Below are positions 346 through 53,584 of a stretch of DNA of 64,000 nucleotides, one piece after another. The stretch is taken from NCBI GenBank assembly GCA_000004695.1, contig CM000154.2:2752001-2816000 (forward strand), read 5' to 3'. Both the position numbers and the translations under genes were made by a program. How positions within the stretch are numbered: the first letter of the stretch is position 1; the number at the start of each line of letters is the position of its first letter. Source of the stretch: Dictyostelium discoideum (taxonomy: Eukaryota). Under the pieces are notes generated by a model that was given only the letters and a program-made list of their open reading frames with translations, had not been told where the DNA came from and did no database searches.

Positions 346-3046
346 TTAATAATTATAATAATTATAAAAATAATAATAATAAAAATAATAAAAGTTGATA
401 CAAACTAAATCAGTTAATAAAAATCCTTCACGAAATTGTTGGCAATATTTGTAAAGGTCTAAACAAGGACTATAAGGACTACGGTTATATATATGATGAA
501 CTGTAACCACTGTTTGATCTATAATTATATCTTTTCCACAAAAACTAATAACATCTTGATAAGTTTTAAATTGTTGTGTCAACATATTATTATTATTATT
601 AAAAAAATAAACTTTGTTATTTGAGTTATAAATATTTCCAAGAAGCATTCTTAGAGCAATATCCATTTCAAACATATTGTAACCATCTTCTTGACCTAAA
701 GGATCTATAAGTTTTTCTATACCTTCTAAAGCAAATTTAGTTATTTGTTGATCATCATCATCTCCATTTGCTTCATAGAAATATGAAATTATCTTATTTT
801 TTTCTGTACAAAGGTACTTAGTTTGAAAATTGTTACAATTATCTTCATCTTTACAAAAAACAATATGTGGATAATAAAAATTTGACTCCCAACAAAATTG
901 AATTGGGGCATCCAAAGTATAAAGATTGTTTTTTCTTATAACCATTTCTTGAAATGTTTTAAAATCTATTTTACCACCACCATTAATCTCTACATTCAAA
1001 TCGATTTTGTCTGATGGTGGTGGAAAACTCATTGATGATCCAGTTAGTTGATAATGTTGTTGAATTTTACTTATTCTTTCCATATCATCACTATTTTCTT
1101 TAATTACCAACCTTGAAATAAAATCATTAATACCTTCTTTAACTTTTGAGTTATAAAATGTCCTTTCTCCACTTGAACTTATATAGTAATACGAATAAAC
1201 TTTTTTTGAAAAAAATTTACTAAGAGTTGGGCTTTTGAAACAATGTACTGATCCTCCTCTATGAGCCTATTTTTGAGTGTTATGAAAAATCAATTTTATT
1301 AAAACTAGATTTTAGAAATCCATAATTTAAATATAAATTTTTACTTACCTGTTTTTCCATAAAATTATTATCACCAACACAAAACCATATATAATCATAT
1401 TGATTAGGTTGGGTTGGTACAACTTCATCAGGAAAATCTCGTTTAAATTGAATAACTGAAAAAGCTTGTTTTGAATGATCCTTTTTTCTTGTAATAATTT
1501 TATTATTAGGAGCATAACCAGTTATATCTTCAACTTGATATACTTTACGTTCAAGATTTGTAACTTTTCCTGTTTCAATGTCATTATAATGTTGAGTTTG
1601 TAAATAAAAGTTTCCTAATAGTGAAATTTGTTGACCACCAAAATCCATCTTTAAGGTTGAAATGTATGTCCAAATGTTTATTAAATTTTTATAACTCAAT
1701 TTACTGGGATCCATATATCTTCTTACACCATTAATATAGTTTTTCCCTAATTGGTTATCTTTGTTATAAAATTGTTTTTGATAAAAATATAATTTTTCTG
1801 AATATTGGTTATAAAGTGTTTCTAAATGTTGCTTTTTACTGTATTCCGAAAAATAATATGCCTGGTTTAAAAAGTTAATTTTTTTTTTTTTTTAATAAAT
1901 AAGGTAATTTAAAGATTTTGATTAGATTAATGAAAATACACATACATGCTTTGCCAAAACATACAATGGGAATTTATCATTTTGGTCCAATATTTTAACA
2001 TCTTTAACAATTCCGGCTGTTACTTGAGATTCTCGAATATTAATATTTTCGTAATGAATATTTCTCTTTTGAAAATCATTTGTATCAGGTATTCTCATAA
2101 AGCTAACTCTTGGAAATTTGGCAGGATCTAAATCATCTAATATATTTGTTAACTCTAATGATGAGAGTCCCCAATTGACCGCCAAACCATTAACGTAACC
2201 AATAACTGAATTTGTTAATACCAAATGTCTATAGATACCAACTTCAATCCCTGTTTTTGAAATCGGATAGCAATATGCATACTGTGCTTGTTGTAATTTT
2301 GGGTTCTTATCTTTTGGTATTAAATTCAAAAATTAATATTAATAATAAAGGAATGAAATTGGTTAAATGTATGAAATAATGAACCATTACCTCTTAAATT
2401 TTTATCTTTATGATTAAAAACTTCTAAACCAGGATTAAATCCACCTGTTTGTGGCTTTTTTGCAAATTTTCCTTTCTCCATAGTTTCATCATTTCTACTT
2501 GTTCTAAACAAAGGAAATGCTGTAAAACTATGCATCACATGTATACCACCATCTTTGTTCCTACAAGTTCACAATGTGTTTAAAATAATAAATCAATTTT
2601 TAAATTAAGAAATTAATTTTCCTTTTTTTTTTTTTTTTTTTTTTAAAAAATTTAAATAAAATTAAAAATTAAAATATTAATATTTACCAAATAAAAAATC
2701 CTTTTGAATGTCCACCTATTGGATCTTTATCTCTTGTTTCATCTGGATGATCATTGTAGGTAACATAATTATAATCTGGGTTTTCCATTTGGTTGAATGT
2801 TAATAAAAACGCTGATTCACTATCATATCTTAATGAATATTCAATTCCTATTTTTTCAGTTATGGTATCAGAGAAACTATTCCAATAATAAATTCCACCT
2901 TCTTCAGGTAACTGGTAAATGTACCATTTTCTTATTTTATCGTTCAATCCAATATCTTTTCCTCCTTGTAAACACATGGGCTGACAATAAAATAATTGAA
3001 TATTAAATATAATTAAAATTAAAAAAATTAAAATAATCTTTTTCAT
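346..3046 (-). CDS. Multi-exon gene for a secreted protein of unknown family. Exon 1 carries a signal peptide (MKKIILIFLILIIFNIQLFYCQ), and at least 5 more exons correspond to ORFs 2684-3046, 2326-2538, 1922-2329, 1280-1714 and 346-1110.
   Basis: Collinear minus-strand ORFs are joined by GTAAAT/GTAATG/GTAAGT donors and AG acceptors. For example, the CAG|GTAAGT donor after ...FMEKQ pairs with a ...AAAATAG| acceptor before AHRGGSVHCF (phase 0). Exon 1 has a hydrophobic N-terminal signal peptide. No family motif was recognised with confidence (phospholipase-B-like was considered but not supported). Confidence 0.4.
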
Positions 3047-3178: not shown

Positions 3179-3621
3179 TTTTTTAAAAACCCAAATTTTG
3201 GAAATTTTGGAAAATAAAATTTTTTTCCCCCCAGGGGGGGAAAAGGGAAAATTTCCCAAAATTTTTTAAATTTTTTAAAAAAAACCCCCCAAAAAAAAAA
3301 AAAAAAAAACCCAAAAGGTTTTTTAATTTTTTCCAATTTTTTTTTAAACCTTCAAAAAAAAAAAAAAAAAAAAAAAAATTACATTTTTAAAACATTTTCC
3401 AAACTTTAAATTATAAAACCGGGGCAAAATTTGGGAAAATTTTTTTTATTATTATAAATCCCTCCCTAAAAAAAAACCAAACAAAAGGGGTGTTGCCCAA
3501 AAAATTTTAAGGAGGGCCCCCCCCCGGTTTAAAATTGAAAAAAAAAGTTAAATTAAATTTATAAACGGTAAAACCTTTTTTTTTTTTTTAAAAAAAAAAC
3601 TTTTTTTTTTATAAAAAAAAA

Positions 3622-3675
<54 letters not shown>

Positions 3676-3695
3676 CCATTTTTGATTGTGATAAA

Positions 3696-6600
3696 ATGAA
3701 TAAAAAATTTATTTTATTATTTATATTTTTATTATTTTCACTGATAAAAAGTGAAAATATCATAATTATAAATAATGAAACTTTTTTAAATCAAACAAAT
3801 TTAATTTTAAATTCATATTATTCACTAAATGATAATATTTTCAAAACTTCAATAATAAATAATGAATTAATATTCCAAGATTCAAGTATAACATTTTTAA
3901 ATCAACATGAAAAAACATCAATTTACAAAGAAGATTTATTAATTAAAAATGGAGAATATCAATTAAATGGTAAATCAACAATTCCAATAATTTTTATAAG
4001 TTTACAACAAATTTTAAATTCAATAAATCCAGTATTGGAATTATCAAATATTGAACCAATAACCAAAATTACAGCAATTGTAAATTCTTATGATGGTAAT
4101 GTGATTGTAGAAGGTTATGAAAGAATTCCAATTTTTTATAATGAATTACAAAATAAAGTTGAATTTTATCAATCAATTTCAGATATTATTGCTCATATGA
4201 TTATTGATTCAATTAAACCAAACCTTGTTTCAAAAAATAAAGATAGTTTATTTCAAAATTATGATTTAACAATTAACGATTGGGAAGAATCAATATCATT
4301 TTTAAAAGGTTTTAAGAATTTTTTTTCAATTTTAATTAAAAAGGTAATTAATCATTTAAAAAAAAAAAAAAAAAACTAAAATGATTATGGATAAATTATT
4401 AATTAATTTTTTTTTTTTTTTTTTTTCTATTTTGTTATTTCCCATACCTATAGATTGCATTCCCAAAATTATCAGATTCTGTAACTGAATCAATCTATAA
4501 TGATAAATCAAATTCATACATAAACATTAAACATATAAAGTACGTATAAAAATCTGATTTTTAATTTACAAAAAAAAAATATCTTTTCTCAACATAATAA
4601 CTTTTTTTTTCATTTTCGATTTTTCTATTTTTATTTTTTATTATTTTAATTTTTTTTTTTTTTTTTAATTTTTTTTATTTTTTTAATAGGCCAAAAAATA
4701 ATCCCACATTCTCTTCATTATCAATTTCATCAACATTGTTGGATTTATATCAAGGAAATGTTGATAAACAAAATAAACCAGTTTTCTTTGAAAAGATAAC
4801 ATTGTTGTCAATGATTACAAGTTTAAAAAATAAACAAGTTATCGATATTGAATCATTTTCAAAAGTATTATTAGAAAATAATAATTTAGAAATTGGTAAA
4901 TCAATTGAAAATATATTATTTTTAAATAAAATAATTTCAACTTGTTCACTAGTTAATTGTTCAACTAATACATCATCCTCTTCAAGATCAATAAAAGCAA
5001 TTTTAAATCCATCAACATTTAACAATACAATTTCACAATGTATTTATTATGATAAAACTAGAAATCAATATTATGATTTAACTCCATTAATGTTGTATGT
5101 ATTTATATATTTTTAAAATAGTATCAATAATAATAGGAATATTGAATAATATAATATTAATATTTTTATTATTAAATTATATATTATATTATTCAATATT
5201 ATTAGACCATCAAATCAATTTTATAATGTAACTAAAGCATCAGTTACAGGAGGTGCAGTTTTTTTTAATTTTTGTACGAAAATTACAAAATGTGATTCAA
5301 TTGCATCAACAACCAAACAATCAGTGGCTTGTCAATCAACCATTGAACTAGCTTCTCTTAATCTTGCACATACTACAACTTTTCCAACCACTGATGGTTT
5401 AACACTTGCATATACAGCACCTGCTACAGGTACTTGCTCACCTTCAAGAAAATTGTCATATGTTTTCGTATGTAATCTTGCTCAAGAAATGTTAGCTGAT
5501 GTCACTGTAACTGCCAATGCATGTACTTTTACTCTTACCATTCAAACAAAATATGCATGCAAGAATCAAGCAGTCTTTTATTTAAATGGAGATCTTTATG
5601 ATTTAAGACCATTACAATTGTAAGTTTACACCCCTTTTTTTTTATGATCATAATAAATTATTAATAAAATCTTTATATTATTAGAACATATCCAAAACAA
5701 TTTCAAGTTAGATTAACACCATGGAATTATCCAGCAGGAGTAATTAGATATGTTTATTTCAATATTTTTGCAAAATCTAAAATGTGTGAAAATACAACAA
5801 CTGGATCAAATCATGCATGCTATATCGATAGTACAAATAGTGGAGTGATTGTTCCAATGAAGGAGCCAGTCTATACAATTGAAACTCAAGATTTAATTAA
5901 AATTCAATATTTTAGTACAGCCCCTTATTTTCCAAGTTGCCCAAATCCTGTATTGGAAATTAATATCAAATGTAATCCAACAGTTGATTATCAATTCCCA
6001 AGTTCAGTTTCTTATGAAGATATGTGTAGTTATCCAATTCTTATTATTGAATCAAGATATGCATGTCCAACAATGCGTTTCTTAAATGGTAAACAATTTT
6101 ATAGTTTAGAATCCTTACAAAAACAATCAACTAATCCATATCAAGTAGCATTTGGATCCAATTATAAATTACTTTTTAATTTTGGTGGTATTGTTGATAC
6201 ATGTGTACAAGCTATGCCAGCAACAAATCCAACAAAAAGAATTCAAGCTTGTCAAATTCATAATACCAATCAAACTGATGTTCGTATAATTGGTGTTGTT
6301 AATTTAGGTCCATTCGTTAAATTCTCTTACAATTCAATGACATTAGAGTATTTTACAGAAACATTAACAAGTGAATGTCCAACCAATGGCAATCGTAGAT
6401 CTATTAGATTAGTATTAACCTGTAATCCAACCACAGATTATTTAGTAACTAGTGTAGTCGAAAGTCCATTATGTGTCTTCCAAGTAAATATAGGCTCAAA
6501 GTATGCTTGTGATTCATTGATATTTTTCAATGGGTATAGTTTTACAGATTTAACACCATTGAAATCCCTCCAAAGATACACTGATATCAGTGGTGGTAAC

Positions 6601-9600
6601 ACTCTTACTCGTTTATATTATTCAATTGGTGAAGCTCATCCAAGTTGTTATACACATGCAACTGCCAATTCATCATTAATTTATCAATCATGTACTTTTC
6701 CAAACTCAACAGTTTCACAAATTGGTGGATTAAAGAATAGTTCTTATTCATTTATAAATGGTGGTAAGAGTTTACAAATTACCTATTCATCAGATGTTAG
6801 TAGTAAAGTTAAATGTGGCGTTTCCTCAACCCAAACTTTTAATGCCCTTACATTTCAATGTGATCCAGTAAATGAATTTGTTCAATCCCTATATACTATT
6901 CCAAGTGTTTGCTATTATGAGGTTAAAATTAATTCATCATATGCATGTTCATTTCCAAAACTTGAAGATTCACCCAAAGCTATAACATCAATCTCTCAAC
7001 CAAACGGTTTTGCCGGTGATCAGTTAACCATCAATGGTGTAGCGCTCCATCAAACAGATAAGGTTATTTTCTCTACACTATTATTTGATGGATCAGTTCA
7101 TAATGAAGTTGCAACAATTATTTCAAAAACATCAAATCAAATCATAGTTCAAATACCATATGGTTATAGAGATTCTGTAATTTATCTCATATCTGCACTT
7201 GGAGTAAAAAGTAATAGTGTTCCATTTTATTTTTCTCCAAATGTTGATCTTTTAATTCCAGAATTTGAAATAAATAAAATAAATAAAATTTATTTAATTG
7301 GTAATGGTTTAGGTTCATTATTTTCAGCAGTACCAAGTTATTGGGTAAATGTATATGCCACAAGAAATTTCACAGGAAGATTCAAGAGTGAATTAACTTG
7401 TGTTTTTGATAGATATTGTTCTACAGGTGGATCCCAATTTCAACCTATACCTTTACCAAATGGTCAACCAGGTATAACATGTATTGAAAGTGAATATTAT
7501 TTAAATAATACCTCTCTTAGATCAAATTTAACAGATGTAGTGGTTTGTCTTGAAATTCCTTATAATATTGGTACTGGTACGATTGATGCTATTGTTTTCG
7601 GTCCTGGTAGTCTTTCTCAAGTGTTCTCTTCATCCTATAGGTATAAAGCCCCAACTATTATACCACCAAGTATTGATAGTAATGTTAAATTAGTGGTTCA
7701 AAATGAAATAATTACAATCAAAGGTGCAGGTTTTCCAAATTACTCCTATAATAAATATAGTTCAAATCTTGCATGGGAGAAAAGCTATGTTTCATTTGGA
7801 CCTTCTTATCAATGTTTAAATGTTGATTGGAGAAAAACAAATGAAATCTATTGTAAAATACCACCTGGAATTGGATCAAATCTTTTATTATCAGTTACTG
7901 TTGGTGATATCACCTCTAAAGCCTCTCTAAATACAACAAATAATTATTATATTTCTTATAATACTCCAACTTTAACACCAAATATTTTATTTTCTGGTGA
8001 ACCAAGTACTCCATCTAAAATCACAATCACTGGTAATTATTTTATTCCAATTGAATTAGTGGTTGCTGCAACTAGTACTCCAAGCATAATCAATTCATTG
8101 GAAAATTATATAATGATTGGTAATGGTAGAAAATGTGAAAATGTTCAATGGATTGATATAAATACAGTTATTTGTACTCCACCAATTTCAACAAGTTCAA
8201 ATCTCGATCAGTTATATCCAATCTCTATAACAGTTGGTGGTCAAACATCAATTGGTGGTAATGTAAATTTTAGATATTACAATGCTTCTTGTTTTTTCCC
8301 TTGTAATTCAAAACCAACCGTAAATACTCCTTCAAATTTTGTATCAACTTTATATGAAAATGGAATTTGTTCAAATCAATTAGATAATAATAATATTCCA
8401 AATGGTAAATCAATTCAACAATTAGAACAATTTTTCATTGATAATTGGACACCAAATACAATTAACAATGATTGGAAATCTGGTCAATTTTATAAAACAT
8501 TCTTTAGAGAACCAAAACAAACCATTTCAAGCTTATCTCAATTTATTGTACAACAATCAAATGATTCAATTTGTGCCTACGATAATTTATCAGTTACTCC
8601 ATATATATCAGTTCAAGATTTAATTACAATTAGCAATGATTTAAATAATTTAGTTGAAAATTCATTTAAAACTTTAGAAATCGAAAATGGATTCCAAATT
8701 TCCTATTATAATGTAACAAGCAATTCAAATGGTAATGGTCTTGCAATTGTAAAAAGCAATGATAAATTATGTAGTTTCGTTGAAAGTTCCTATGATGTTC
8801 CAAGTTTAAATCAAGCATTACAATTATGTTTTGAATCTTGCTATTTCTATTTTTGTAATGATACTACTCAAAATTATCAAATATTATTAGCTAATTCAAA
8901 TGATTTAAAAAGTATTCTATTAAAATCTGGTATTTGTTCAAATGATATCGAACAATATAATTTCCAACTATTAGAATCCATACTATCGAATCAATTATTT
9001 TATAATGAATTTGAAAGTGATTGGTCAAGAGGTCCACTTTTAAATTTACTTTCAAATACATCAAAGGCAATCAATCAAATATCACCATTTATCAAATTAA
9101 ATTTTCCATTAACATATAGTTGTATCTATGATACACCATCAGCAAGTAAAATTACAATTTCAAAATTAATAGATATAGTTGATGATTATAGAAGATTAAT
9201 TGTTAATAAAGTTTATAATGAAACTAAGGATTATGGTGGTGGTATTTTGAAATCTTATTTTTTCAAATTAAATAGTGATAGTAATACTAAAGGTCTTGTA
9301 ATAGTTACTCGTGATAATAAGATTTGTAGTATCGTTGATTCTTTATATTCAGATTTTACTTCAGATTCAGTTATTACAACTTGTGATATGATTTACTCTA
9401 TTACATCTGTTCAAGTTATAAACGATTCAGTTAAACCATATAGGGTCAGATTTGAATTACTTGGAAATTTCGTTGGTGATATTAAATTTGGTGATGATCA
9501 AATTTGTAATCTCGTTTCAACAGAATTTACAGGTCTTTATGGATATAGGGAATGTTTATTTGATGATATTAAAAATTCAGCCACATTAACATATCAAGCA

Positions 9601-12600
9601 AATGGTATTACCATAGTCGATGATTTTAGATTTAAATTCCCACAACCAATAATTACAAATATTGAATATTCAACCACACCATTAGTAATTGCAAATTCAG
9701 ATATTACAATCACAGGTTTAAATTTATTTAGAGATAATGATGTAGTGAATTTTAAAAACTTAAAAGTAATGATCAATCAACTTGATGTTACATCAACAAT
9801 TAAAGATTCAACAATAAACCCAACAACTGGTTTTTCAACATTTAAAATCAAAGCAATTGGTAGGGGAGAGGCAAACAGAATCATTGTTTATTCAGATGAT
9901 TTTGAAATTCGAACTAATAAATCAATTATGGGTGTAGATTTTTCTCTTATTTATACTTTAGAATCACCAATTTTATCATCATTATCAAGCACAACAGGTC
10001 AACGTGGTGACATGATTAAATTATTTGGTTATTTCCCACAATGTATTCAATGTAATGAAACCATCATTTTATTTGGTGACAATCAAGTTTCTGATTTTAC
10101 AATTATAAGTTCAACAGAAATTCAAGTTATTGTACCATATGGTTTCGATAAAGTACCCATAATAGTAATGATTAATCAAGTTTTCAATCATGATGATAAT
10201 TGGGTTTATTTTTCATATCCACAACCAGAAATTCATCAAATTATAAAGAGTTCAAGCATTGAAACCTCATCAAATAGTCCATTTTGGGTTTTTGGTATTG
10301 GCTTAAATCCACTTCCAACAAATCCAGATTCATTCTTTACAGCTTCTTTACTATCAACTATTTACGATGCTGATAATGATGTAGATGGTGATAATCTTAA
10401 ATTGGAATGTGAATTTTCAGACTTTTGTTATAGAAACAAAGTTTATTATATTGATGGTGGTGATGGCACTGAAAATAATCAAACAATTCCAAGACCAACT
10501 TCTCAAATTGATCCAAATAATTTTGATCCATGTATAGAGTTGAAATCTCAATATTTTGAGAATGTAGAATTTGATACATATGTTTGTTATTTAATTCCTG
10601 GTATTGGTAAAGATTCTGTTGTTGAAATTCAAATCATTCAAGATAATGTTTCAATTAAAAGTAGTTTCAACTATTCCTATGATTTACCATTAATTAATTC
10701 ACTTGAAATTTTACAAAGTAATGGTAGTGATTCTTCCTCTTCCTCTTCTTCTTCTTCTTTTGAATTAATAAGAAATAGTACAAATGGTGGTTTAAATTTA
10801 ATTATTGATGGTTTAAATTTCCCACCAACCGAAATATTTACATTGTATAGTAATGAAGATATTTTTACAGAAAATGATTGGATTCCAATTGAATGGTCAG
10901 TGAGTAATTTATTAATTGGCGAATTTGGTTGTAAAAATATTAGTTGGATAAATTCAAGCACAATCGAAGCGATTATTCCTCCAGGTGTTGGTAAAAATTT
11001 ATCAGTTTCAGTATTGGTTGGTGGTCAATTACCATCTACCAACACTAATTACTCATATTCATATGATTTACCATCATTGGATAATAAAGAGTATACAGTA
11101 TCAACCGATGGTAATAAATTTATTACAATAACAGGTACAAACTTTGTTCCTCTCGAATTAGCAAAACAATTTAATGAAAATCCAAATCAATATCAAACTG
11201 AAAATTTTGTTGAAATTACTTTTAATAAAAGTCATACACAACATTGTGTCGGTATTAAATGGATAAATTCAACAACATTAGAATGTAAAGTTTTACCAGG
11301 TATTGGAAAGAATCATAGTATATCAGTAACAATTGGTAATCAACATTCAATCTCAAACACAACTTTTTCATATAGCAAACCAATTATACCATCAAATAAA
11401 TTTTACTCATCATCAACTCATGGCAATGATGAAATTACAATTGAAGGTGATAATTTTATACCAAAAGATTTAGTAAATCAATATAACAGAAACAATGAAA
11501 ACATCAATGACAATGGTGAAAAAATTAACAGTATATTCATTGATGATAAAGAATGTACATCAATTGTATGGATTAATTCAAAACAAGTAAAATGTAATGT
11601 ACCAGTTGGTCAAGGAACCAATTTAAAGATTAAGGTTATAGTTGGATCACAAGAAGTAATAAGACCAAATATTTTCTCATATAATCCACCAAAAATTAGC
11701 TCAATTGAACCAACAAAAGGTAGAATAAATATCGATAATCAAATCATCACTATCAAAGGAACAAATTTTGGAGTTTCACCAAAGGTACTCATTGATCAAG
11801 TTGATCAATGTTCAAATGTATCACTCGTTTCAAATGATACTTTACAATGTACATTACCAAAATCAACCAGTGAAGGAATAAAGTCAATTTTAGTACAAGT
11901 TGAAAACCAACGTTCAAATTCAAAAGAATTTGAATACTATGGCCCACCAACAATTGAAAACATTCAAACTCCATCATTTATTTCATTTGATGGCGGTGAT
12001 AGAATAACATTAATAGGTAAAAACTTTTTAGAACATGGTGCTCCAATCGATAATTTAGTTTTGGTATTACAAAATCAAAATAATAATATTTCAATTAATG
12101 CTATAGATGTAAAAAGTACATCAATTGTATTTGAAACTATAGAAGGTTCAGACTATACTAAAATATATATCGATTTAAATGGTCAAATATCAAATAGTGT
12201 TTTCATGTTTTATTCAAATCCAAAAATTACCAATATCACACCACCAAGTGGTCAATACAATCAAGCAAATACAATTGTAATTAGTGGTTATAATCTTGCA
12301 TTGGAAGATCATAAATCAGATTTAAAGATTAAAATTGGTTCAAATAATTGTGGTGATATAGCAATTCAATCATCAGAATCTGTATCATGCTCAGTACCAA
12401 TCGTTACTAAATCAGAATCTGGTACAAAACCTGTTATTCTAACTTTTTCTCATCATCTTTCAACATCTTCAGAATATACTTACACAAAACAAGATAGTGA
12501 AAGTCAAGAAACTAGTGAAAGTCATGAAACAGATTCTACCACCACTACTACCACATTATCAACAACAACAATTTCAACTACCACTGGTGGCTCATCTACA

Positions 12601-15600
12601 ACTACATCAAGTCAATCAACTACTGGCCAATCATCGTCAACATCAACAACTGGAAATCCACCCACAACAATTATTAATACAATTCCATTCGGCTTTGTAT
12701 TTCCCCCACTTCCACCCCTTCCACCAATTCCGATTCCACTTCCACCTCTTCCACCAATTCCAAAAGGAGACTTCCTAAAGTTTGGAGAGTTTAAATTTGG
12801 ACCATTTGATTGGGACTTCCCAGGTACAAATGGAATTGCCTTACCAATTTTACCAATTGGTTTACCAGGTCTTCCTGTTGGTTTAGATTTACCTTCAATG
12901 GGTTATCCATTTGGTTTACCAACAACAGCTCCATGCGCACCAAGAACTCTTAGTTTATTGGCAAGAGCTATTAAATCTGTTGGTGGAATCGTTGGAAGAA
13001 TATTTTCACCACCGGTATTTGATCTTCCTTTCTTTGATCCTTGTAAAGATGATGATGGTACTGATGACAGTGATGACAGTGATGGTAGTGAATATACAAC
13101 CTACAATTCAGCTTCAACAACTACAACTGTTGGTTCAACTACAACTAGTGGATCAACAACAACTGGAGGAGAATCAACAACTGGAGGATCAACAACAACT
13201 GGTGGAGAATCAACAACTGGAGGACCAACAGCAACTGGTGGAGAATCAACAACTGGAGGATCAACAACAACAACTGGAGGAGAATCAACGACTACAACTG
13301 GTGGAGAATCTTCAACGACTGGTGGTGAAACTCCAACACCATCAATAACCCCAACTCCAACACCAACAATAACACCTATTCCTCTTGACTCATCCACTGT
13401 ACTTTGTAACTATAATGCTGATCAAACTATCTTAACAATTTTAAACAATGGCTTAAATAGAGTTTGTTGTACTGATGAAAAAGAATCAAGCTTCTGTTAT
13501 TTTGAAAGTATAGAATGTAGAAAAAATAAGCAAAACAACAATATTTCATGTTTGAGCTATCCATTAGGAGGTGAAGCAATTGATTTCGATGAAAGTGTTA
13601 AATGTTATATTGCAAGTGAAACCGTATCATGTTTGTTATCAATTTTAGATCCACTTTCAATTCCAGAACCAATATTACCAAATCAAAATTTACAATGTTT
13701 CATCCACACTAATGAAACATATCCAAGTATTTCCATTAAAAATATTAGATCTAATACCTCTTATATTGGTGATGATAATTCAGTTACTCAAAATAGCTTC
13801 TCTTCTGAGCATAAATGTGTTATAAATACTTTAAACAATACAATTGATTGTTCCGATGTAAATAATTTAGAGCCAACCTTAACATTTAACAAATCATTTA
13901 AAGTATTTATCGATAATAAAATGAATTGTTTAATTGAAAATCCATTTTCATCTGAAACAGGTTCAAGTGATAATAGTTCAAACTCCTCAAGTGATTCAAA
14001 TTCATCAAGTGATAATAGTTCAAACTCTTCCTCAAGCAATTCAAACTCATCTTCCGAATATTCATCTTCAGGTTCAAATTCATCCTCATCTTCAAGTGGT
14101 AGCACCTCAAGTTCATCATCATCAAACAATAGTAGCTCAAACTCATCGTCAAGTGACAGTGGTTCAAATTCTTCATTAGAAAATAGTAGCAGTAATAATA
14201 ATTCAAATTCATCATCAAGTGATAACGGCTCAAACTCTTCCTCAAGTAATTCAAACTCATCTTCTGAATATTCATCTTCGGGTTCAAATCCATCATCATC
14301 TTCAAGTGGTAGCACCTCAAGTTCATCATCAACAAACAATAGTAGCTCAAACTCTTCATCAAGTGACAGTGGTTCAAACTCTTCGTCAGGAAATAGTAGC
14401 GGTAGTAGTTCAAATTCATCTTCAAGTTCAAACTCGTCAACATCATCAAGTGAAACACAAAATAGCTCAGAATCTTATGAAAATAGTATAAAGTGTAATT
14501 TCGATACCAACAAAACTACTCTATTAATTGAAAATATTTTGAATCATTCAATATCATGCTCTGATGAATTCAATAATAATTTCACATCCACTGCTCAAAT
14601 TACATGTGAAATATTATTAAATTATAATAATAATACAAATAATTTCTATTCCAATTGCTCTACAAGCGAGAATGAATCCTACATACTTGGTCAATCCATT
14701 AAATGCTCAATTGATGAATATTTGACTTGTTCATTAAATTCACCAACTATTAACAACAATAGTAGCAGTATCAATGGTAGTAGTGGTATTAGTAGTAGTG
14801 ATAGTAGCGTTAACAATAGTACAAGTAGTGACAACAACAACAATAACAATAGCAATAATACTAGTATAGACTCATCTAATAGTAAATCAACAATTTCAAT
14901 CATCTATGATATTGTAGATAAAAGTATGGTTGTAGAAAATCAAGACAAAGAAGAGATCATATGTTTTGGTGATTATACATCAATATTAATTTATTCTGAT
15001 GATTTTGGTTGTTCGATCGTTATGATAAATGGAACAAATTTAATTAAATGTTCAAATAATAATACAGAAACTATGGAAGAGTTAACCTTTTATCAATCAG
15101 TAGAATGTAAAATTGATGATTCAACTCAATCATATTCACTAGTTATTCCGTCACCACCAATTGTTGATCAAGTTATAGAGTGCCATTTCAATTTAAATCG
15201 TACTACACTTGATATTGAAAATAATGGTAGTCATGTTATCACATGCAGTGACAATTTAAATTCTCAAAGATTCAACTTCTCCAAAGGTATCGGTTGTATG
15301 ACTAATGAAACAACAAATCAAATATCTTGTTTTAGTGAAAATCAAACTGCTTTTTTCAATCAATCAGTATCATGCTCATTAAACAAATATATGACATGCT
15401 CTTTAGATGTTGTTTCATTATCATCATCTTCCTCTTCATCTTCATCCTCGTCTGTTAACGGTGGCAATAATTCATCAACACCAACAGTGTCAATGTCATT
15501 AAACTCTTCCACATCAGATTCATCAACATCGGCCTCTTCAATGTCATCATCATCCTCCTCTTCAATAGAACCTAATGAATATGTAATTACTAGTAAATTT

Positions 15601-15924
15601 GATATTATCAACAATAGATTAACACTTGAAAATCTATATAACAAAACAATCAGCTGTATTGGTGACCGAAATGCTACCTATACTCTATATTCAAACTTTA
15701 GTTGCACAATTGTTCCATTCAATCAAACAGAAATTATCATAGAATGTTATAATGAAAACTCTTCAATTTTAACATTCACAGAATCTTTTGAATGTAATAT
15801 TGGTTTTTCATTGAAATATTCATTAACTATTCCACAAACTACCCCAACTGATGATGATATTAATAGAAGCAAAAGTAGTATCAATAACTCAAGTCACACC
15901 AATAATAAATCTCAAGAATTTTAA
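3696..15924 (+). CDS. Giant secreted protein (~3,900 aa) with multiple IPT/TIG-like domains, N-terminal MRH-like Cys modules, a Pro-rich segment and mucin-like Ser/Thr tracts. Proposed exons are 3696-4343, 4454-4539 (86-bp microexon), 4690-5094, 5206-5619 and 5685-15924.
   Basis: There is a signal peptide at the ATG at 3696 (MNKKFILLFIFLLFSLIKSENIII). Donors are AAG|GTAATT (4344), AA|GTACGT (4540), TT|GTATGT (5095) and TT|GTAAGT (5620). Acceptors are CTATAG| (4453), AATAG| (4689), ATTAG| (5205) and TTAG| (5684). The phases are consistent (0, 2, 2, 2) and join into the 10-kb ORF 5782-15924. IPT/TIG-like repeats recur about 12 times (ITIKGAGF, ITITGNYF, ITITGTNF, ITIEGDNF, ITIKGTNFG, ITLIGKNF, IVISGYNL). 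A Cys module of the form CNPT.DY...C....YAC occurs four times. Confidence 0.7.
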
Positions 15925-16639
15925 TTTTTCTTAAAATGCCAAACCAATCTAACAATTTATAATTAAATAAATCTATTGATAGAAATTTTTTTTATTAATT
16001 ATCTAAAATATTGGTAGATTTATGTCCCAATTAAGTCTACAGCAAAAATTTATTTCTTTGTTAATTATTTTTATTTTCAAAATTCTTTTTATTGGATATT
16101 AACAAATTATTTTACAATCCAAGTATATTTTTTTTTTTTTTTTTTTTTTTTGTATTGATTAATTACAGTTTTTCAAGAAAAGGAAAATAATAAATAATTA
16201 TAATTTTTTTTTTTTTTTAAATATTAATTTATTATATGCTGAATCTTTAAGCAATAATAGTTTTTTTTTTAGTTTATATTTTGTTTTAAAATTTATATTT
16301 ATATGAATTGAATCAACAATTACTCTATTTGGTAGTATTGTGCTTGATAAACAATAATCTTTTATAATTTGGTTTTTAATATTTTTAATTTTTTTGATGT
16401 ATTCGATTTTTTAACAAATTGGGAGGGTATCTTTTGATGATGCTAATTTATAATTTTTAACTTTATTTATATAATCCAAGGTCGCTGATTCATACCATTT
16501 TTAAGAATTATATCATTGTATAATGTTTTGGCTTGGATTTGGTTGTCGTTGTGGAGTTTGTCCTAGGTGTGCAAGTCAATCTATTTACCACTAATTTTTG
16601 CATATCTATATGTGTATTATAATTTACAATTTTAAAAAT

Positions 16640-16712
16640 GCCCAGATAGCTCAGTCGGTAGAGCGCAAGGCTTTTAACCTTGTGGTCGGGGGTTCGAGCC
16701 CCCCTTTGGGCG
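16640..16712 (+). tRNA. tRNA-Lys (anticodon UUU), 73 nt, no encoded CCA
   Basis: The sequence forms a cloverleaf. The acceptor stem GCCCAGA pairs with TTTGGGC (one G-U pair). The D-arm is GCTC-AGTCGGTA-GAGC. The anticodon stem CAAGG/CCTTG encloses the loop CTTTTAA (anticodon TTT). The T-arm is GGGGG-TTCGAGC-CCCCC, followed by a discriminator G. Confidence 0.9.
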
Positions 16713-16832
16713 AAATTTTTAAATTAATATCGTTGATCGAGGGTTCAACTCCCAGTTTAATGTAATGCCAATATTGATCATAATAAATAAAGGAACACAC
16801 AATTAATATTATATGAATGCTGTAAAGCGTGA

Positions 16833-18547
16833 ATCAAAACTAACTTTATTTTTTTTCATTTTTTTCAGTTTTTATAATTTTCGAGTTTTCGTTATTTTCG
16901 ACCTAGAAGTTTCGAACGAAAACTCTAAAATATATAAAAACTAAATAAATTAATTATTATTTTAATTATTATTGTTTAATTGTTAATCATTATTATTATT
17001 ACTATTATTAATATTATGATTATTAAAAACTTATTAATATTAAACAATGTAATTCATTACATATCCCCCTTCTTGACAAGATCGGGAAAAATGAAATGAG
17101 AATATTAATTGTGGATGATTAATTATTATATCAATTGGCTTATATTAAATTTTGATTGATTTTTTTTTTTTTTTTTTTTAATTTGATTTGATTTGATTTG
17201 ATTTGATTTGATTTGATTTGATTTGATTTGATTTGATTTGATTTGATTTTTTTTTGATTTCCAAAGATGCAGACCTTGAAAATTTCTTGAAATTGTTAAA
17301 TAACAAAACTGTCACTACGACTTGAACAACTCTATTACCTAAATTTCTTGCATGGATTCGCAACACTGAATCTAATGACTGGAACTTCAATTCACTATTA
17401 CTATCACTTCTTAACTATCTTTTACTATTTCAGGATGGACTATCATAAGCGTGAGATTTTCACTTTAACCATTACAACTATATATATAATCGACATTGTT
17501 TATACATATCAGTAAACCAAACTTTACTTTCCTCTTCTACTACTACCACTACTACTACTATTACTTCTGGACGGACTATCGTTTAGCGTGAGATTTATCA
17601 CTTCAACCATTACAACTATATATATATAATCAACATTGTTTATACATATTAGTAAACCAAACTTTATACTACTTCTACTATTACTATTATTACTACTTCT
17701 AATGAACACCACGATGGATACCAGTTCATTATGTTTGCAACTTTAAAATCATTATAATAAGATTCAACATTGAATATCTTAATACGACTACTTAAGGAGA
17801 CTTTCGCATTACTATTATTTCTACTAGTGATACGCAAACATAGACATCTATTTGCGCTCTGCAGTGATAACCGACACCGCCACTTAGTATTGTAATAAAC
17901 CTTTATATCCATGAATTCTATTAATCTATGGTGATGGTTTGCACATCATACTATCGTGGTTTTATTATAACTCTTTTGATGTATGATTTAGTTTAAATAT
18001 TGTTTACACACATTGTCAACAAGTATTAACCTAACATCTATTGCTATTTTTTTTTTTTTTTTTATGATTATTAAATTTTAAAACTATATCTTGTTTAACA
18101 ATTATTTTAAATGACATAATTTTATTTGTTTGCGAATTATGAATTCATATTCATAATTTCATCCCCTCATTAAAATTTATGACGATCAGCCAACCATTAA
18201 AACGAGCAGGTACTGATTAAATAATTATATCAAAGGATAGATAGTGATACAATTAAATAATTTGAGTAATGATGATACTTTACGAAAGAAAAAAAATAAT
18301 AATGGTAATTTTCTTTTTTTTTTTTTTTTTTAACAAGCAAATATTAACTATGATATCTATTATGTATGGGCATACTCTTAGAATAATAATGATTAACAAT
18401 TAAACAATAATAATTAAAATAATAATTAATTTATTTAGTTTTTAATATTTTAGAGTTTTCGTTCGAAACTTTTAGGTCCAAAATAACGAAAACTCGAAAA
18501 TTATAAAAACTGAAAAAAATGAAAAAAAATAAAGTTAGTTTTGATTT
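16833..18547. mobile_element. Non-autonomous element of ~1.7 kb bounded by near-perfect ~165-bp terminal inverted repeats (16833-16998 and 18381-18547), located ~120 bp downstream of tRNA-Lys. It has no intact ORF.
   Basis: The reverse complement of 18381-18547 matches 16833-16998 almost base for base (…TCAAAACTAACTTTATTTTTTTTCATTTTTTTCAGTTTTTATAATTTTCGAGTTTTCGTTATTTTCGACCTAGAAGTTTCGAACGAAAACTCTAAAATAT…). The interior holds an (ATTTG)n microsatellite, a ~130-bp direct tandem duplication (17430-17700) and a GC-richer segment. No target-site duplication is obvious. Confidence 0.45.
17180..17250. repeat. (ATTTG)n pentanucleotide microsatellite (~13 units) inside the TIR element
   Basis: Direct reading of the sequence. 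Confidence 0.9.
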
Positions 18548-28777: not shown

Positions 28778-29875
28778 TTAAAAATTATTGCAAATATTAG
28801 AGTTATCATTATCAATGTCCATTTCAGTATTTATGGGTTTTATTTGGAGATCTTTTTCTGTGGTGATTGTTGAAGTGGTTGCAGTAATAGTTGTTTCATT
28901 AATATTTCCGTTATAATTATTATTACCATTGTTATTTTCGCTATTTCTGCAATTAATATCATCACTACTAATATCATCATTACAAACCATCTTTGATTTT
29001 TTAAAAAGACTTTGACTAATTATATCATCGTCGTCCTCATTATCATCCCTATCATTATCATCACCTTGTTGACTAGGTATTGCTCTTTTTACATTAAATT
29101 TATTTTGTTGTTGTTGTTGTTGTTTTTGTTTTTGTTGTTGTTGTTGTTGTTGATGATTTATGATATTAGGACTAATTATTTTATTATCCATATTTGCAGC
29201 TATATTATTTTTATTATTATTATTATTACTATTATTATTATTATTATTATTAATATTATCGTTTTCATTGATATATTCTAGTAAAGCTTTCTTTATTGAA
29301 TTAAAAACGGAAAGAAGTTGATCTTCCAAGAAATTAATTTTTTCATTCATCTTCATCATTGTTTCATGCATTTTTGTAAGTTTATCATTTCCAAAGCTTA
29401 ATGGTACAATTTCATTTTTATCCTCAACAATAATATTATTATTTCCACCAACACCATAACTAAAAATAAAAAAAGAAATAAAAAAAACATTAGTTAACCT
29501 TTTATAAAAAAAAAAAAAAAAAAATCTTATAAAATACTTACTATGTTATTGAACCAATATCAATAACGAAATGATTTAAGATTTTGAATTTTTGTGATGT
29601 TTTGTTGAATTTCCTTCCTAATGGCGAATTACAATAACATTACAGATCCTCCAAGTTTTTTCATTACAAAGGTGTTTGTTAATGTCATATACATATCACA
29701 CTCGTGAGATTTATTAACGATTAATGTTGAATCACCAATTGGTGTTTTACAAGATAAGCAACTAAATATTAAAATAGAATTTATAACTTCTTCCAATGTA
29801 GGTATTTCATTAAACTGATGCTCTTCTATTTGTTGTTCATTACTATCTTGTTGTGCCTCTTGATGTTGATGACGA
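28778..29875 (-). pseudogene. 5'-truncated paralog of the Q/N/His-rich gene at 32742-34502. Its 3' exons (MHETMMKMNEKINFLEDQLL…) are intact, but the upstream part is deleted and fused to a lamin-derived fragment at ~29876.
   Basis: The region 28778-29470 is near-identical to 32742-33440. Upstream it still encodes …KSHECDMYMTLTNTFVMKKLGG, then loses ~150 bp relative to copy 2 and diverges at …GACGATG|CGAAATCCAAAGATGG…. Confidence 0.4.
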
Positions 29876-32741: not shown

Positions 32742-33086
32742 TTAAACATTATTGCAAATATTAGAGTTATCATTATCAATATCCATTTCAGTATTTGTGG
32801 GTTTTATTTGGAAATCTTTTTCTGTGATGATTGTTGAAGTGGTCGCAGTAATAGTTGTTGTTGTTGAATCAGTTATTTCATTAATATCTCCGTTATAATT
32901 ATTATTACCATTGTTATTTTCACTATTTCTACCATTAATATCATCACTACTAATATCGTCATTACAAACCATCTTTGATTTTTTAAAAGGGCTTTGACTA
33001 ATTATATCATTATCGTCCTCATTATCATCCCTATCATTATCATCACCTTGTTGACTAGGTATTGCTCTTTTTACATTAAATTTATT

Positions 33087-33133
<47 letters not shown>

Positions 33134-34037
33134 GCTGATTTATGATATTACTATTAGGACTAATTATTTTATTATCCATATTTGCGGCTATATTATTATT
33201 TTTATTATTATTATTATTACTATTATCATCGTTTTCATTAATATATTCTGGTAAAGCTTTCTTTATTGAATTAAAAACGGAAAGAAGTTGATCTTCCAAG
33301 AAATTAATTTTTTCATTCATCTTCATCATTGTTTCATGCATTTTTGTAAGTTTATCATTTCCAAAGCTTAATGGTACAATTTCATTTTTATCCTCAACAA
33401 TAATATTATTGTTTCCACCAACACTATAACTAAAAAAAGAAAAAGAAAAAACATTAGTTAACCTTTGTAAAAAAAAAAAAAAAAAAAAATCTTATAAAAT
33501 ACTTACTATGTTATTGAACCAATATCAACAACGAAATGATTATTTAAGATTTTGAATTTTTGTGATGTTTTGTTATATTTCCTTCCTAATGGCGAATTAC
33601 AATAACTACAATAAAATAGGGAATAAATACTTTTATAAAGAAAAAAAAAAAGAAAGAAAGAGTTAATATGAAAGATAATCAATTATCTTATTAAATAAGT
33701 ATTTATATAATTACCAATCAGTTTCACCTCTATAAGTTGATGGTTTTTGATCACCTAAAATTACAGATCCTCCAAGTTTTTTCATTACAAAGGTGTTTGT
33801 TAATGTCATATACATATCACACTCGTGAGATTTATTAACGATTAATGTTGAATCACCAATTGGTGTTTTACAAGATAAGCAACTAAATATTAAAATAGAA
33901 TTTATAACCTCTTCCAATGTAGGTATTTCATTAAATTGTTCCTCTATTTGTTGTTCATTATTATCTTGTTGCTCCTCTTGTTGTTGATGACGATGATGGT
34001 GGTGACGATGTGACTTTGATGATGATCGGTGTTCTTC

Positions 34038-51732: not shown

Positions 51733-53584
<1,852 letters not shown>

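Follow-up and report, generated by a model that had tools for sequence, protein, structure and literature searches.

The window analyzed here comprises 64,000 nucleotides of chromosome 5 of Dictyostelium discoideum. Its positions 3696-15924, on the + strand like every feature described below, very probably constitute a single five-exon gene coding for a 3,930-aa secreted and modular protein, heavily N- and O-glycosylated and free of membrane anchors. Once joined, the exons give a CDS of 11,793 nt, divisible by 3 and with only one stop codon, the terminal one. Exon 1 (3696-4343, 648 nt) starts at AAAATG, ends in phase 0 and contains the signal peptide (3696-3752, aa 1-19) and most of an N-terminal domain, about 325 aa long and specific to the family. 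It is followed by intron 1 (4344-4453, 110 nt, AAAAAG/gtaatt...ctatag/ATT, GC 12.7%) and by the small exon 2 (4454-4539, 86 nt, IAFPKLSDSVTESIYNDKSNSYINIKHIK), that shifts the frame by 2 nt. After intron 2 (4540-4689, 150 nt, ATAAA/gtacgt...aatag/GCC, GC 10.7%), exon 3 (4690-5094, 405 nt) completes the N-terminal domain and begins the first MRH module. Intron 3 (5095-5205, 111 nt, ATGTT/gtatgt...attag/ACC, GC 8.1%) lies directly 3' of the DLTPL motif of this module, whose body is found in exon 4 (5206-5619, 414 nt) together with the beginning of module 2. In the same way, intron 4 (5620-5684, 65 nt, CAATT/gtaagt...attag/AAC) is directly 3' of the DLRPL motif of module 2. Exon 5 (5685-15924, 10,240 nt including the TAA stop) showed no internal intron-like AT trough.

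All four introns are of the GT..AG type with GTA at the donor, and by their boundaries, shortness and AT-richness they are canonical spliceosomal introns. The yardstick for this was the genome averages of D. discoideum, whose introns are reportedly short, extremely AT-rich and delimited by GT..AG. GC content was 18-33% in the exons versus 8-17% in the introns. A coding score of codon log-odds, trained on the other ORFs of the 64-kb window, was between 0.31 and 0.43 bits/codon for each exon in the model frame, with 0 stops; the other frames were never positive and the introns were all negative. The initial annotation had linked the exons by phase bookkeeping. The chain is indeed in frame and ranks number 1 by summed coding score, but it is not unique, as we found 790 GT..AG solutions with an open frame (55 direct and 735 with one internal exon). 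Phase alone is therefore no proof of the model. What settles the predicted structure is the comparative evidence, i.e., where the homologues have their introns, in which phases, and how long their exons are. All four introns appear at equal positions and phases in a D. purpureum homologue and in a D. discoideum paralogue, and the protein alignments to both run uninterrupted across every junction. Specifically, intron 1 has counterparts of equal position and phase at L001:6157-6231 in D. purpureum and at L002:3697-3795 in the paralogue, and exon 1 is homologous to D. purpureum L001:5803-6156 and to the N-terminus of the paralogous protein (P0007). The predicted splice junctions rest on these comparative data and on the statistical ones, and the five exons and roughly 3,900 aa originally proposed have held up.

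Exon 2 had been described as an 86-bp microexon that the ORF track would miss. The latter is correct: its open frame covers only 4454-4546, between the acceptor's own TAG and a TAA located 7 nt past the donor. There is no start codon in it, and the list of ORFs of at least 40 aa does not include it. Such a short, stop-bounded and unlisted frame would escape an ORF track. The name is less adequate, since microexons in the usual sense measure at most 30-51 nt, and small exon is the better term at 86 nt. If the exon is skipped the reading becomes GCC AAA AAA TAA, a stop. The small exon of D. purpureum is also exactly 86 nt long (ISFPNLSSDKINSIYDYQSKSYINLAKFR) and that of the D. discoideum paralogue 83 nt.

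Other explanations of the locus were weighed against the five-exon model. Positions 3696-4379 are by themselves a complete ATG-to-stop ORF of 227 aa, and exon 1 could be a separate small gene, with the giant gene beginning further downstream. We regard this as very improbable. The final 11 residues of that ORF (VINHLKKKKKN) are poly-A intron sequence, and the homologous segment is joined to the MRH/TIG body both in D. purpureum and in the paralogue, the protein of which has a similar signal peptide (MKKIILIFISFYF...). Besides, the three loci share the donor AAAAAG/gtaa in the same phase, and a Cys-rich, sequon-bearing body of the secreted type would be left without a signal peptide. There is also a slim chance that splicing around the small exon is different or alternative, for example with donor 4308 and acceptor 4476 or with donor 4543 and acceptor 4796, and several open-frame paths do score within 5-15% of the best one (145.4, 140.6 and 136.3 vs 151.9). 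However, their sites are weaker, they would delete sequence that both D. purpureum and the paralogue have conserved (SFLKGFxNF..IKK; I.FP.LS...), and the exact 86-nt length and its boundaries recur in D. purpureum. No annotated AX4 protein for the gene at 3696-15924 was found in the protein resources queried, which would fit a pseudogene in decay or an artefact of assembly with a merely long open frame. This is extremely improbable given that the frame stays open over 11.8 kb in DNA of 18-33% GC, the codon bias is like that of the other window genes, the domain profiles are intact and the frame is the same in independent strain contigs. The latter (Logan contigs, i.e., unspliced genomic DNA) were 99.92% identical to window positions 4658-13197 with 0 indels, and of the 7 SNPs found in the independent strain assembly 4 were synonymous and 3 missense. 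Independent read assemblies of D. discoideum also yielded the ORF 5324-5623 at 98% identity (P0001).

Four MRH repeats (CI-MPR-type, P-type lectin) are found at 5036-6954 (aa 361-941), a span interrupted by introns 3 and 4. Single modules were sub-threshold in Pfam (ATG27, E 0.004; PRKCSH_1, E 0.04). A profile built from 31 modules of the family, the four in the window among them, matched CI-MPR with E 2.3e-91 across 10+ repeats, and also the MRH domain of glucosidase II beta (GIIbeta, 5e-4) and CD-MPR (2e-3). The unit is about 145 aa long, with four invariant Cys in the set of 31 modules and a fifth that is at least 90% conserved; in module 3 there are six (Cys 45, 61, 103, 118, 135, 147). 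This profile homology and Cys framework confirm the predicted membership of the MRH/P-type lectin fold, as the initial annotation had suggested for four MRH-like Cys modules. We then mapped the Gln-Arg-Glu-Tyr positions that contact mannose/Man-6-P from CI-MPR domain 3 (Q392, R435, E460, Y465; 6um1 numbering). Module 1 has Q,R,-,F; module 2 -,-,E,Y; module 3 Q,R,E(-4),F; and module 4 -,-,-,Y. Thus, the full tetrad appears in 0 of the 4 modules, being nearly complete only in module 3 and degenerate in the other three. Several MRH modules of the homologues do retain Q,R,E,Y, among them modules 1 and 4 of D. purpureum, unlike the window protein. Lectin activity of the latter is doubtful because only module 3 approaches the tetrad, a failure that bears on lectin function and not on fold membership.

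The MRH repeats are followed by a first IPT/TIG block (6970-8283, aa 947-1384) of four modules, the second of which carries a 4-Cys insertion. Then come an alpha/beta domain of about 185 aa, specific to the family and present in two copies (8284-9411; aa 1385-1575 and 1576-1760), and a second IPT/TIG block of about ten modules (9397-12486, aa 1756-2785). A domain search for IPT/TIG had been set as a test beforehand, and Pfam PF01833 matched the whole protein in 9 stretches with 213 bits (E 3.7e-64). When the modules were searched in isolation, nine exceeded the curated gathering score of 20.9 bits (22-53 bits), namely modules 1, 3 and 4 of the first block and six of the second. One more of the second block was sub-threshold (15 bits), and four modules, three of them in the second block, were in register without a PF01833 match. 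With about 14 modules in register, counted in this way, the previous figure of about 12 was fair. Tandem TIG modules also form the stalks of metazoan plexin, Met and fibrocystin, although the likeness to plexin and fibrocystin is one of architecture only. A linker (12487-13386) contains a mucin-like S/T tract and, at aa 2846-2965, a hydrophobic segment rich in Pro that includes a poly-Pro string at 12703-12762 (aa 2858-2877); it also has an acidic stretch, after which GGESTT repeats appear. The C-terminal part (13399-15834) consists of six Cys-rich beta-sandwich modules of about 80 aa (aa 3090-3171, 3188-3271, 3453-3538, 3588-3673, 3682-3761 and 3819-3901) separated by Ser/Asn-rich tracts. Their Cys1 and Cys6 disappear together, which is consistent with a mutual disulfide. 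Poly-Pro stretch, mucin-like tracts and repeated Cys-rich C-terminal module had all been noticed in the initial annotation.

Secretion was judged by a Kyte-Doolittle scan with a hydrophobic cut-off of KD>=1.6. The only strong hydrophobic segment was aa 4-26, the N-terminal h-region (max KD 2.21), supporting the signal-peptide exon first proposed. The sole other window at the cut-off was the internal Pro-rich 2902-2920 (KD 1.64), with 4 Pro and 3 Gly. The scan gave no TM helix or GPI signal, also in agreement with the first reading of the C-terminus, the last 60 aa being hydrophilic (max 0.45). The 3,930 aa include 99 Cys and 110 N-x-S/T sequons. At the level of sequence, a secreted, non-anchored extracellular protein is confirmed. 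Some membrane association is possible because 2902-2920 reaches KD 1.64 and paralogues are TM-like at the equivalent place: P0003 and P0007 have Ala/Ile/Val stretches of this kind between the TIG array and the Cys modules. A membrane-bound receptor, either a sorting or endocytic lectin like CI-MPR or a cell-cell recognition molecule like the Tgr proteins, would account for these stretches, for the CI-MPR-type repeats and for the TIG arrays, which are also found in the adhesion and allorecognition proteins TgrB1 and TgrC1 of Dictyostelium (PMC12821622, PMC4404348). Nevertheless, we consider it unlikely. The best internal window is not a TM-grade helix, and there is neither a cytosolic (sorting) tail nor a GPI-type C-terminus. 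Repeat size, Cys framework and profile-level homology are common to CI-MPR-type proteins, but here only four repeats exist, fused to TIG arrays and each with an incomplete tetrad. The Tgr (Tiger) proteins share the tandem extracellular PF01833 modules, but they are of about 900 aa, some 4 times smaller, with a C-terminal TM anchor (PMC12821622) and without MRH repeats. By its size and lack of TM the window protein falls outside that family. No Tgr protein appeared among the homologues of its N-terminal 951 aa, and the searches gave no sequence relationship with Tgr proteins past the TIG fold.

The probable orthologue is D. purpureum DICPUDRAFT_77883 (XP_003287029.1 / F0ZHW9, 'MRH domain-containing protein') together with the neighboring JGI gene model downstream of it. 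Domain order is collinear (N-domain, four MRH, four TIG, twin domain, TIG array), all four introns are shared, including those around the 86-nt exon, and both genes have a DNase II gene head-to-head upstream. Identity is only about 27-34%, MRH modules 3 and 4 have additional introns, and the database model is N-terminally truncated, lacks a signal peptide and is divided over two genes. The D. discoideum paralogue is annotated as DDB_G0290815 ('MRH domain-containing') and DDB_G0290813 ('IPT/TIG domain-containing'), merged into one 2,456-aa protein (P0007) in newer strain assemblies. It shares the signal peptide, N-domain, MRH repeats, twin domain, TIG array and C-terminal Cys modules (phmmer 82 bits with the N-terminal 951 aa), and its gene has the homologous small exon and a DNase II neighbour too. 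It is shorter, with only 2-3 Cys modules and with a TM-like hydrophobic stretch that replaces the Pro-rich/mucin-like linker. The window also encodes exact copies of the AX4 proteins ubqF/DDB_G0289449 and DDB_G0289459, which identifies it as part of D. discoideum chromosome 5. The domain combination had been called unusual; it is so outside the dictyostelids, but it recurs in paralogues to which UniProt has given the names 'MRH domain-containing' and 'IPT/TIG domain-containing'.

By means of its cleavable N-terminal signal peptide, the product of the five-exon gene would enter the secretory pathway and, with no membrane anchor, this very large glycoprotein would be released or deposited outside the cell. 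From the N-terminus it would present the N-domain, four MRH, four TIG, two alpha/beta domains and about ten TIG, then the mucin-like/Pro-rich linker and six disulfide-bonded beta-sandwich modules with Ser-rich spacers. The TIG arrays may form a long, stiff stalk and the mucin-like tracts extended spacers, while the terminal MRH and Cys modules may offer surfaces to which glycans or other components of the matrix bind. No functional data on members of the family were found in the searched literature. The gene belongs to an annotated but unstudied dictyostelid family, so that its description is ordinary annotation of low novelty. Judging from the architecture, its product is most likely a secreted matrix or adhesion glycoprotein, that would have a structural or adhesive function in the extracellular matrix or cell coat.

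The data show that window positions 3696-15924 (+) form a single gene, and they also show how its exons are arranged, which domains its product contains and that this product is of secretory character. Joined together, the five exons (3696-4343, 4454-4539, 4690-5094, 5206-5619 and 5685-15924) amount to 11,793 nt, which is divisible by three, and encode 3,930 aa up to a sole terminal stop. Each of the four introns is GT..AG, the donors being of GTA type and the AG preceded by T-rich tracts, and GC content was 18-33% in the exons vs. 8-17% in the introns. With codon log-odds trained on eleven other window ORFs, each exon scored positive in the frame of the gene model only (0.31-0.43 bits per codon, without stops; 0.43 in exon 5 and comparable in the others), and introns were negative in every frame. 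The 86-nt exon has no start codon and its open frame spans 31 codons, with the acceptor's TAG at one end and a TAA seven bases beyond the donor at the other. It is therefore absent from the ORF list, as the initial annotation had anticipated. When it is skipped, a stop (GCC AAA AAA TAA) appears at the start of exon 3. Phase bookkeeping, from which the exons had originally been linked, is not sufficient to fix the model: from the ATG to the end of exon 3, 790 GT..AG combinations leave the frame open (55 direct and 735 with one internal exon). The path originally proposed ranked first among them on summed coding score, with 151.9 bits vs. 145.4 for the runner-up, a lead that is not decisive by itself. 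The readings of the locus as a pseudogene and of exon 1 as a separate gene were both rejected. Hidden introns within exon 5 were likewise discarded, since the GC scan found no intron-like AT trough there below 14%.

A HMMER scan with aa 1-951 over 1.84 billion representatives retrieved 12 relatives, all dictyostelid except several metagenome or read-assembly sequences and one 99-aa fragment. The Dictyostelium purpureum protein XP_003287029.1 aligned continuously with aa 192-646, spanning all four junctions. The D. purpureum donor following ...ILVKK is AAAAAG/gtaatt, identical to that of the window. The exon after it is exactly 86 nt long and ends in phase 2 (ISFPNLSSDKINSIYDYQSKSYINLAKFR vs. 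IAFPKLSDSVTESIYNDKSNSYINIKHIK), and two further introns, after DL.LL.L and after LSPLVL, fall at the same residues and in the same phases. In the D. discoideum paralogue (DDB_G0290815 and DDB_G0290813 in AX4, a single 2,456-aa protein in newer strain assemblies) the locus, L002, contains an 83-nt exon with phases identical to the window layout. The alignment of the paralogue protein to the window product covers aa 158-301 (E 9e-14), and the paralogue's N-terminus carries a comparable signal peptide. The same predicted small exon is conserved across dictyostelids. Besides, independent D. discoideum read assemblies (Logan) covered 4658-13197 at 99.92% identity without indels, the seven differences being four synonymous and three missense. 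With its introns conserved in D. purpureum and in the paralogue, the predicted five-exon model, as drawn in the initial annotation, is regarded as established on comparative and statistical grounds.

For the relatives, the gene models in the databases look fragmented. The D. purpureum model lacks its N-terminal part and is divided between two neighbouring ones (6001-11033 and 11384-17033 of its locus, L001), collinear with the single window protein, and AX4 DDB_G0290815/DDB_G0290813 is one paralogue gene split in two, which newer strain annotations join. In a collection of 15 billion proteins no exact match was found to the 3,930-aa product, the 227-aa ORF (3696-4379) or the 3,380-aa ORF. Above 50% identity to the product, a 99-aa ORF fragment was the only protein retrieved from AX4 or the other strains, the neighbouring AX4 genes being present in these collections. 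A word-indexed protein search with aa 1-1201 and aa 1385-1840 gave no match, and the same search also missed clear relatives known in its collection (P0002-P0007), so that its negatives carry no information here. The AX4 genome being curated, we take it as almost certain that the gene has a dictyBase entry. Family entries in the databases are hypothetical 'MRH domain-containing' or 'IPT/TIG domain-containing' proteins. The domains are known and the family is already in the databases; the result is a careful correct annotation rather than a discovery, and it does not overturn current knowledge. In practical terms it supplies a validated gene model, in which the 227-aa ORF, the 86-nt exon and the 10-kb ORF belong to one secreted protein, and it could guide the repair of the broken D. 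purpureum and AX4 DDB_G0290815/813 models.

IPT/TIG was the sole family that Pfam found on the whole protein (E 3.7e-64). When the 14 in-register TIG modules were tested singly, nine were above the gathering score, one was sub-threshold and four were undetected, two of the latter bearing a 4-Cys insertion; the IPT/TIG assignment is thereby confirmed. The four MRH-like modules gave singly only sub-threshold Pfam matches to MRH-type families (ATG27 E 0.004, PRKCSH_1 E 0.04). An HMM built from the four detected 3-7 copies per relative, and the family profile matched CI-MPR, with weaker matches to glucosidase II beta, CD-MPR and erlectin. At the level of sequence, the predicted fold of the window modules is MRH. 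Four sugar-contact residues were transferred by alignment from CI-MPR domain 3, and at these sites modules 1-4 have Q,R,-,F; -,-,E,Y; Q,R,E,F and -,-,-,Y; Q,R,E,Y are retained in several MRH modules of D. purpureum, Polysphondylium and paralogue proteins. A lectin activity of the window protein is doubtful. Dictyostelium has classically been described as lacking Man-6-P receptors (PMC2114169), and the possibility that it may have extracellular P-type lectins is the most interesting remaining point.

In each MRH repeat of the paralogue (L002:4577-4732, 5162-5250, 5728-5873 and 6300-6382), and partly in D. purpureum (L001:6801-6863 and 7290-7355), an intron lies at the same relative place, with the DLxPL motif directly before it. 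In the window gene this intron is retained in MRH repeats 1 and 2 only (introns 3 and 4). This pattern is consistent with repeats duplicated together with their intron and a later loss of introns.

The Pfam matches to the N-domain, to the Pro-rich segment, to the Cys modules and to the twin domain (two copies of a family-specific alpha/beta domain) were all either sub-threshold or spurious, and no PDB sequence relatives of the twin domain and N-domain were found. The poly-Pro stretch and the mucin-like tracts described initially were both recovered, the former at aa 2858-2877 and the latter as linkers rich in S/T, Ser/Asn and GGESTT, with tandem repeats in the underlying DNA. Strong hydrophobicity is confined to the N-terminal signal sequence; inside the protein, one hydropathy window rich in Pro and Gly peaks at KD 1.64, and the C-terminal end is hydrophilic, in agreement with the signal peptide and lack of TM anchor reported before. 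The 99 Cys and 110 N-glycosylation sequons of the product point to a protein of secreted type. In two paralogue proteins, P0003 (aa ~2810-2905) and P0007, the merged DDB_G0290815/DDB_G0290813 product (aa ~2090-2190), Ala/Thr/Ile/Val-rich TM-like stretches separate the TIG array from the Cys modules and take the place of the Pro-rich segment of the window protein, so that the family may contain both membrane-anchored and free forms. Should these stretches form a single membrane crossing, the Cys modules, which are of disulfide type, would be cytosolic.

The window is extremely AT-rich (8-40% GC across 400-nt windows) and encodes exact copies of the D. discoideum AX4 proteins polyubiquitin-F (DDB_G0289449, 59202-60803) and DDB_G0289459 (60938-61519), as well as a psiH fragment, which places it on D. 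discoideum chromosome 5. The giant gene is about 43 kb from ubqF (DDB_G0289449) and lies head-to-head with a DNase II gene (2684-3046 with more exons down to ~350, minus strand; Pfam PF03265 E 2e-7, own signal peptide). The same divergent pair was found in D. purpureum (DNase II at L001:2994-5353, minus strand) and at the paralogue locus (L002:1-2540, minus strand), which suggests a conserved pair duplicated as a block. Between the two window genes, positions 3300-3560 consist of brief single-base runs (cc, gggg, ccccccccc, aaaa, tttt) with a GC of ~24% vs. 12-17% in both flanks, and look like low-quality, 'stuttered' sequence or an unusual promoter region. The sole tRNA gene of the window, tRNA-Lys(UUU) (16639-16713, plus strand), is ~700 nt downstream of the giant gene stop. 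Elsewhere, two ORF pairs on the minus strand look like local gene duplications, one near-identical in sequence (28778-29371 and 32742-33341; 197 and 199 aa) and the other alike as known from length alone (52405-52938 and 53051-53584; 177 aa each).

No functional study of the gene or its family was found in the literature searched, and the D. discoideum paralogue is merely mentioned as a gene without recovered insertion mutant (PMC7190356). We infer that the protein could be an extracellular matrix or cell-coat scaffold, in which TIG arrays and mucin-like spacers would supply length and the terminal modules binding. Two other roles were considered and are not supported. A sorting receptor would share the MRH-type repeats of CI-MPR, from which the window protein differs in having neither TM nor tail and in its degenerate sugar-binding residues. 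A recognition protein of the Tgr type, in turn, is of a different size and has an anchor that is absent here (PMC12821622, PMC4404348). By its predicted domains, the protein belongs to a dictyostelid-specific family in which CI-MPR-type repeats are fused with long TIG arrays and three kinds of module without known relatives. In aggregative multicellularity, the members of this family are candidates for a role in the matrix or in adhesion.
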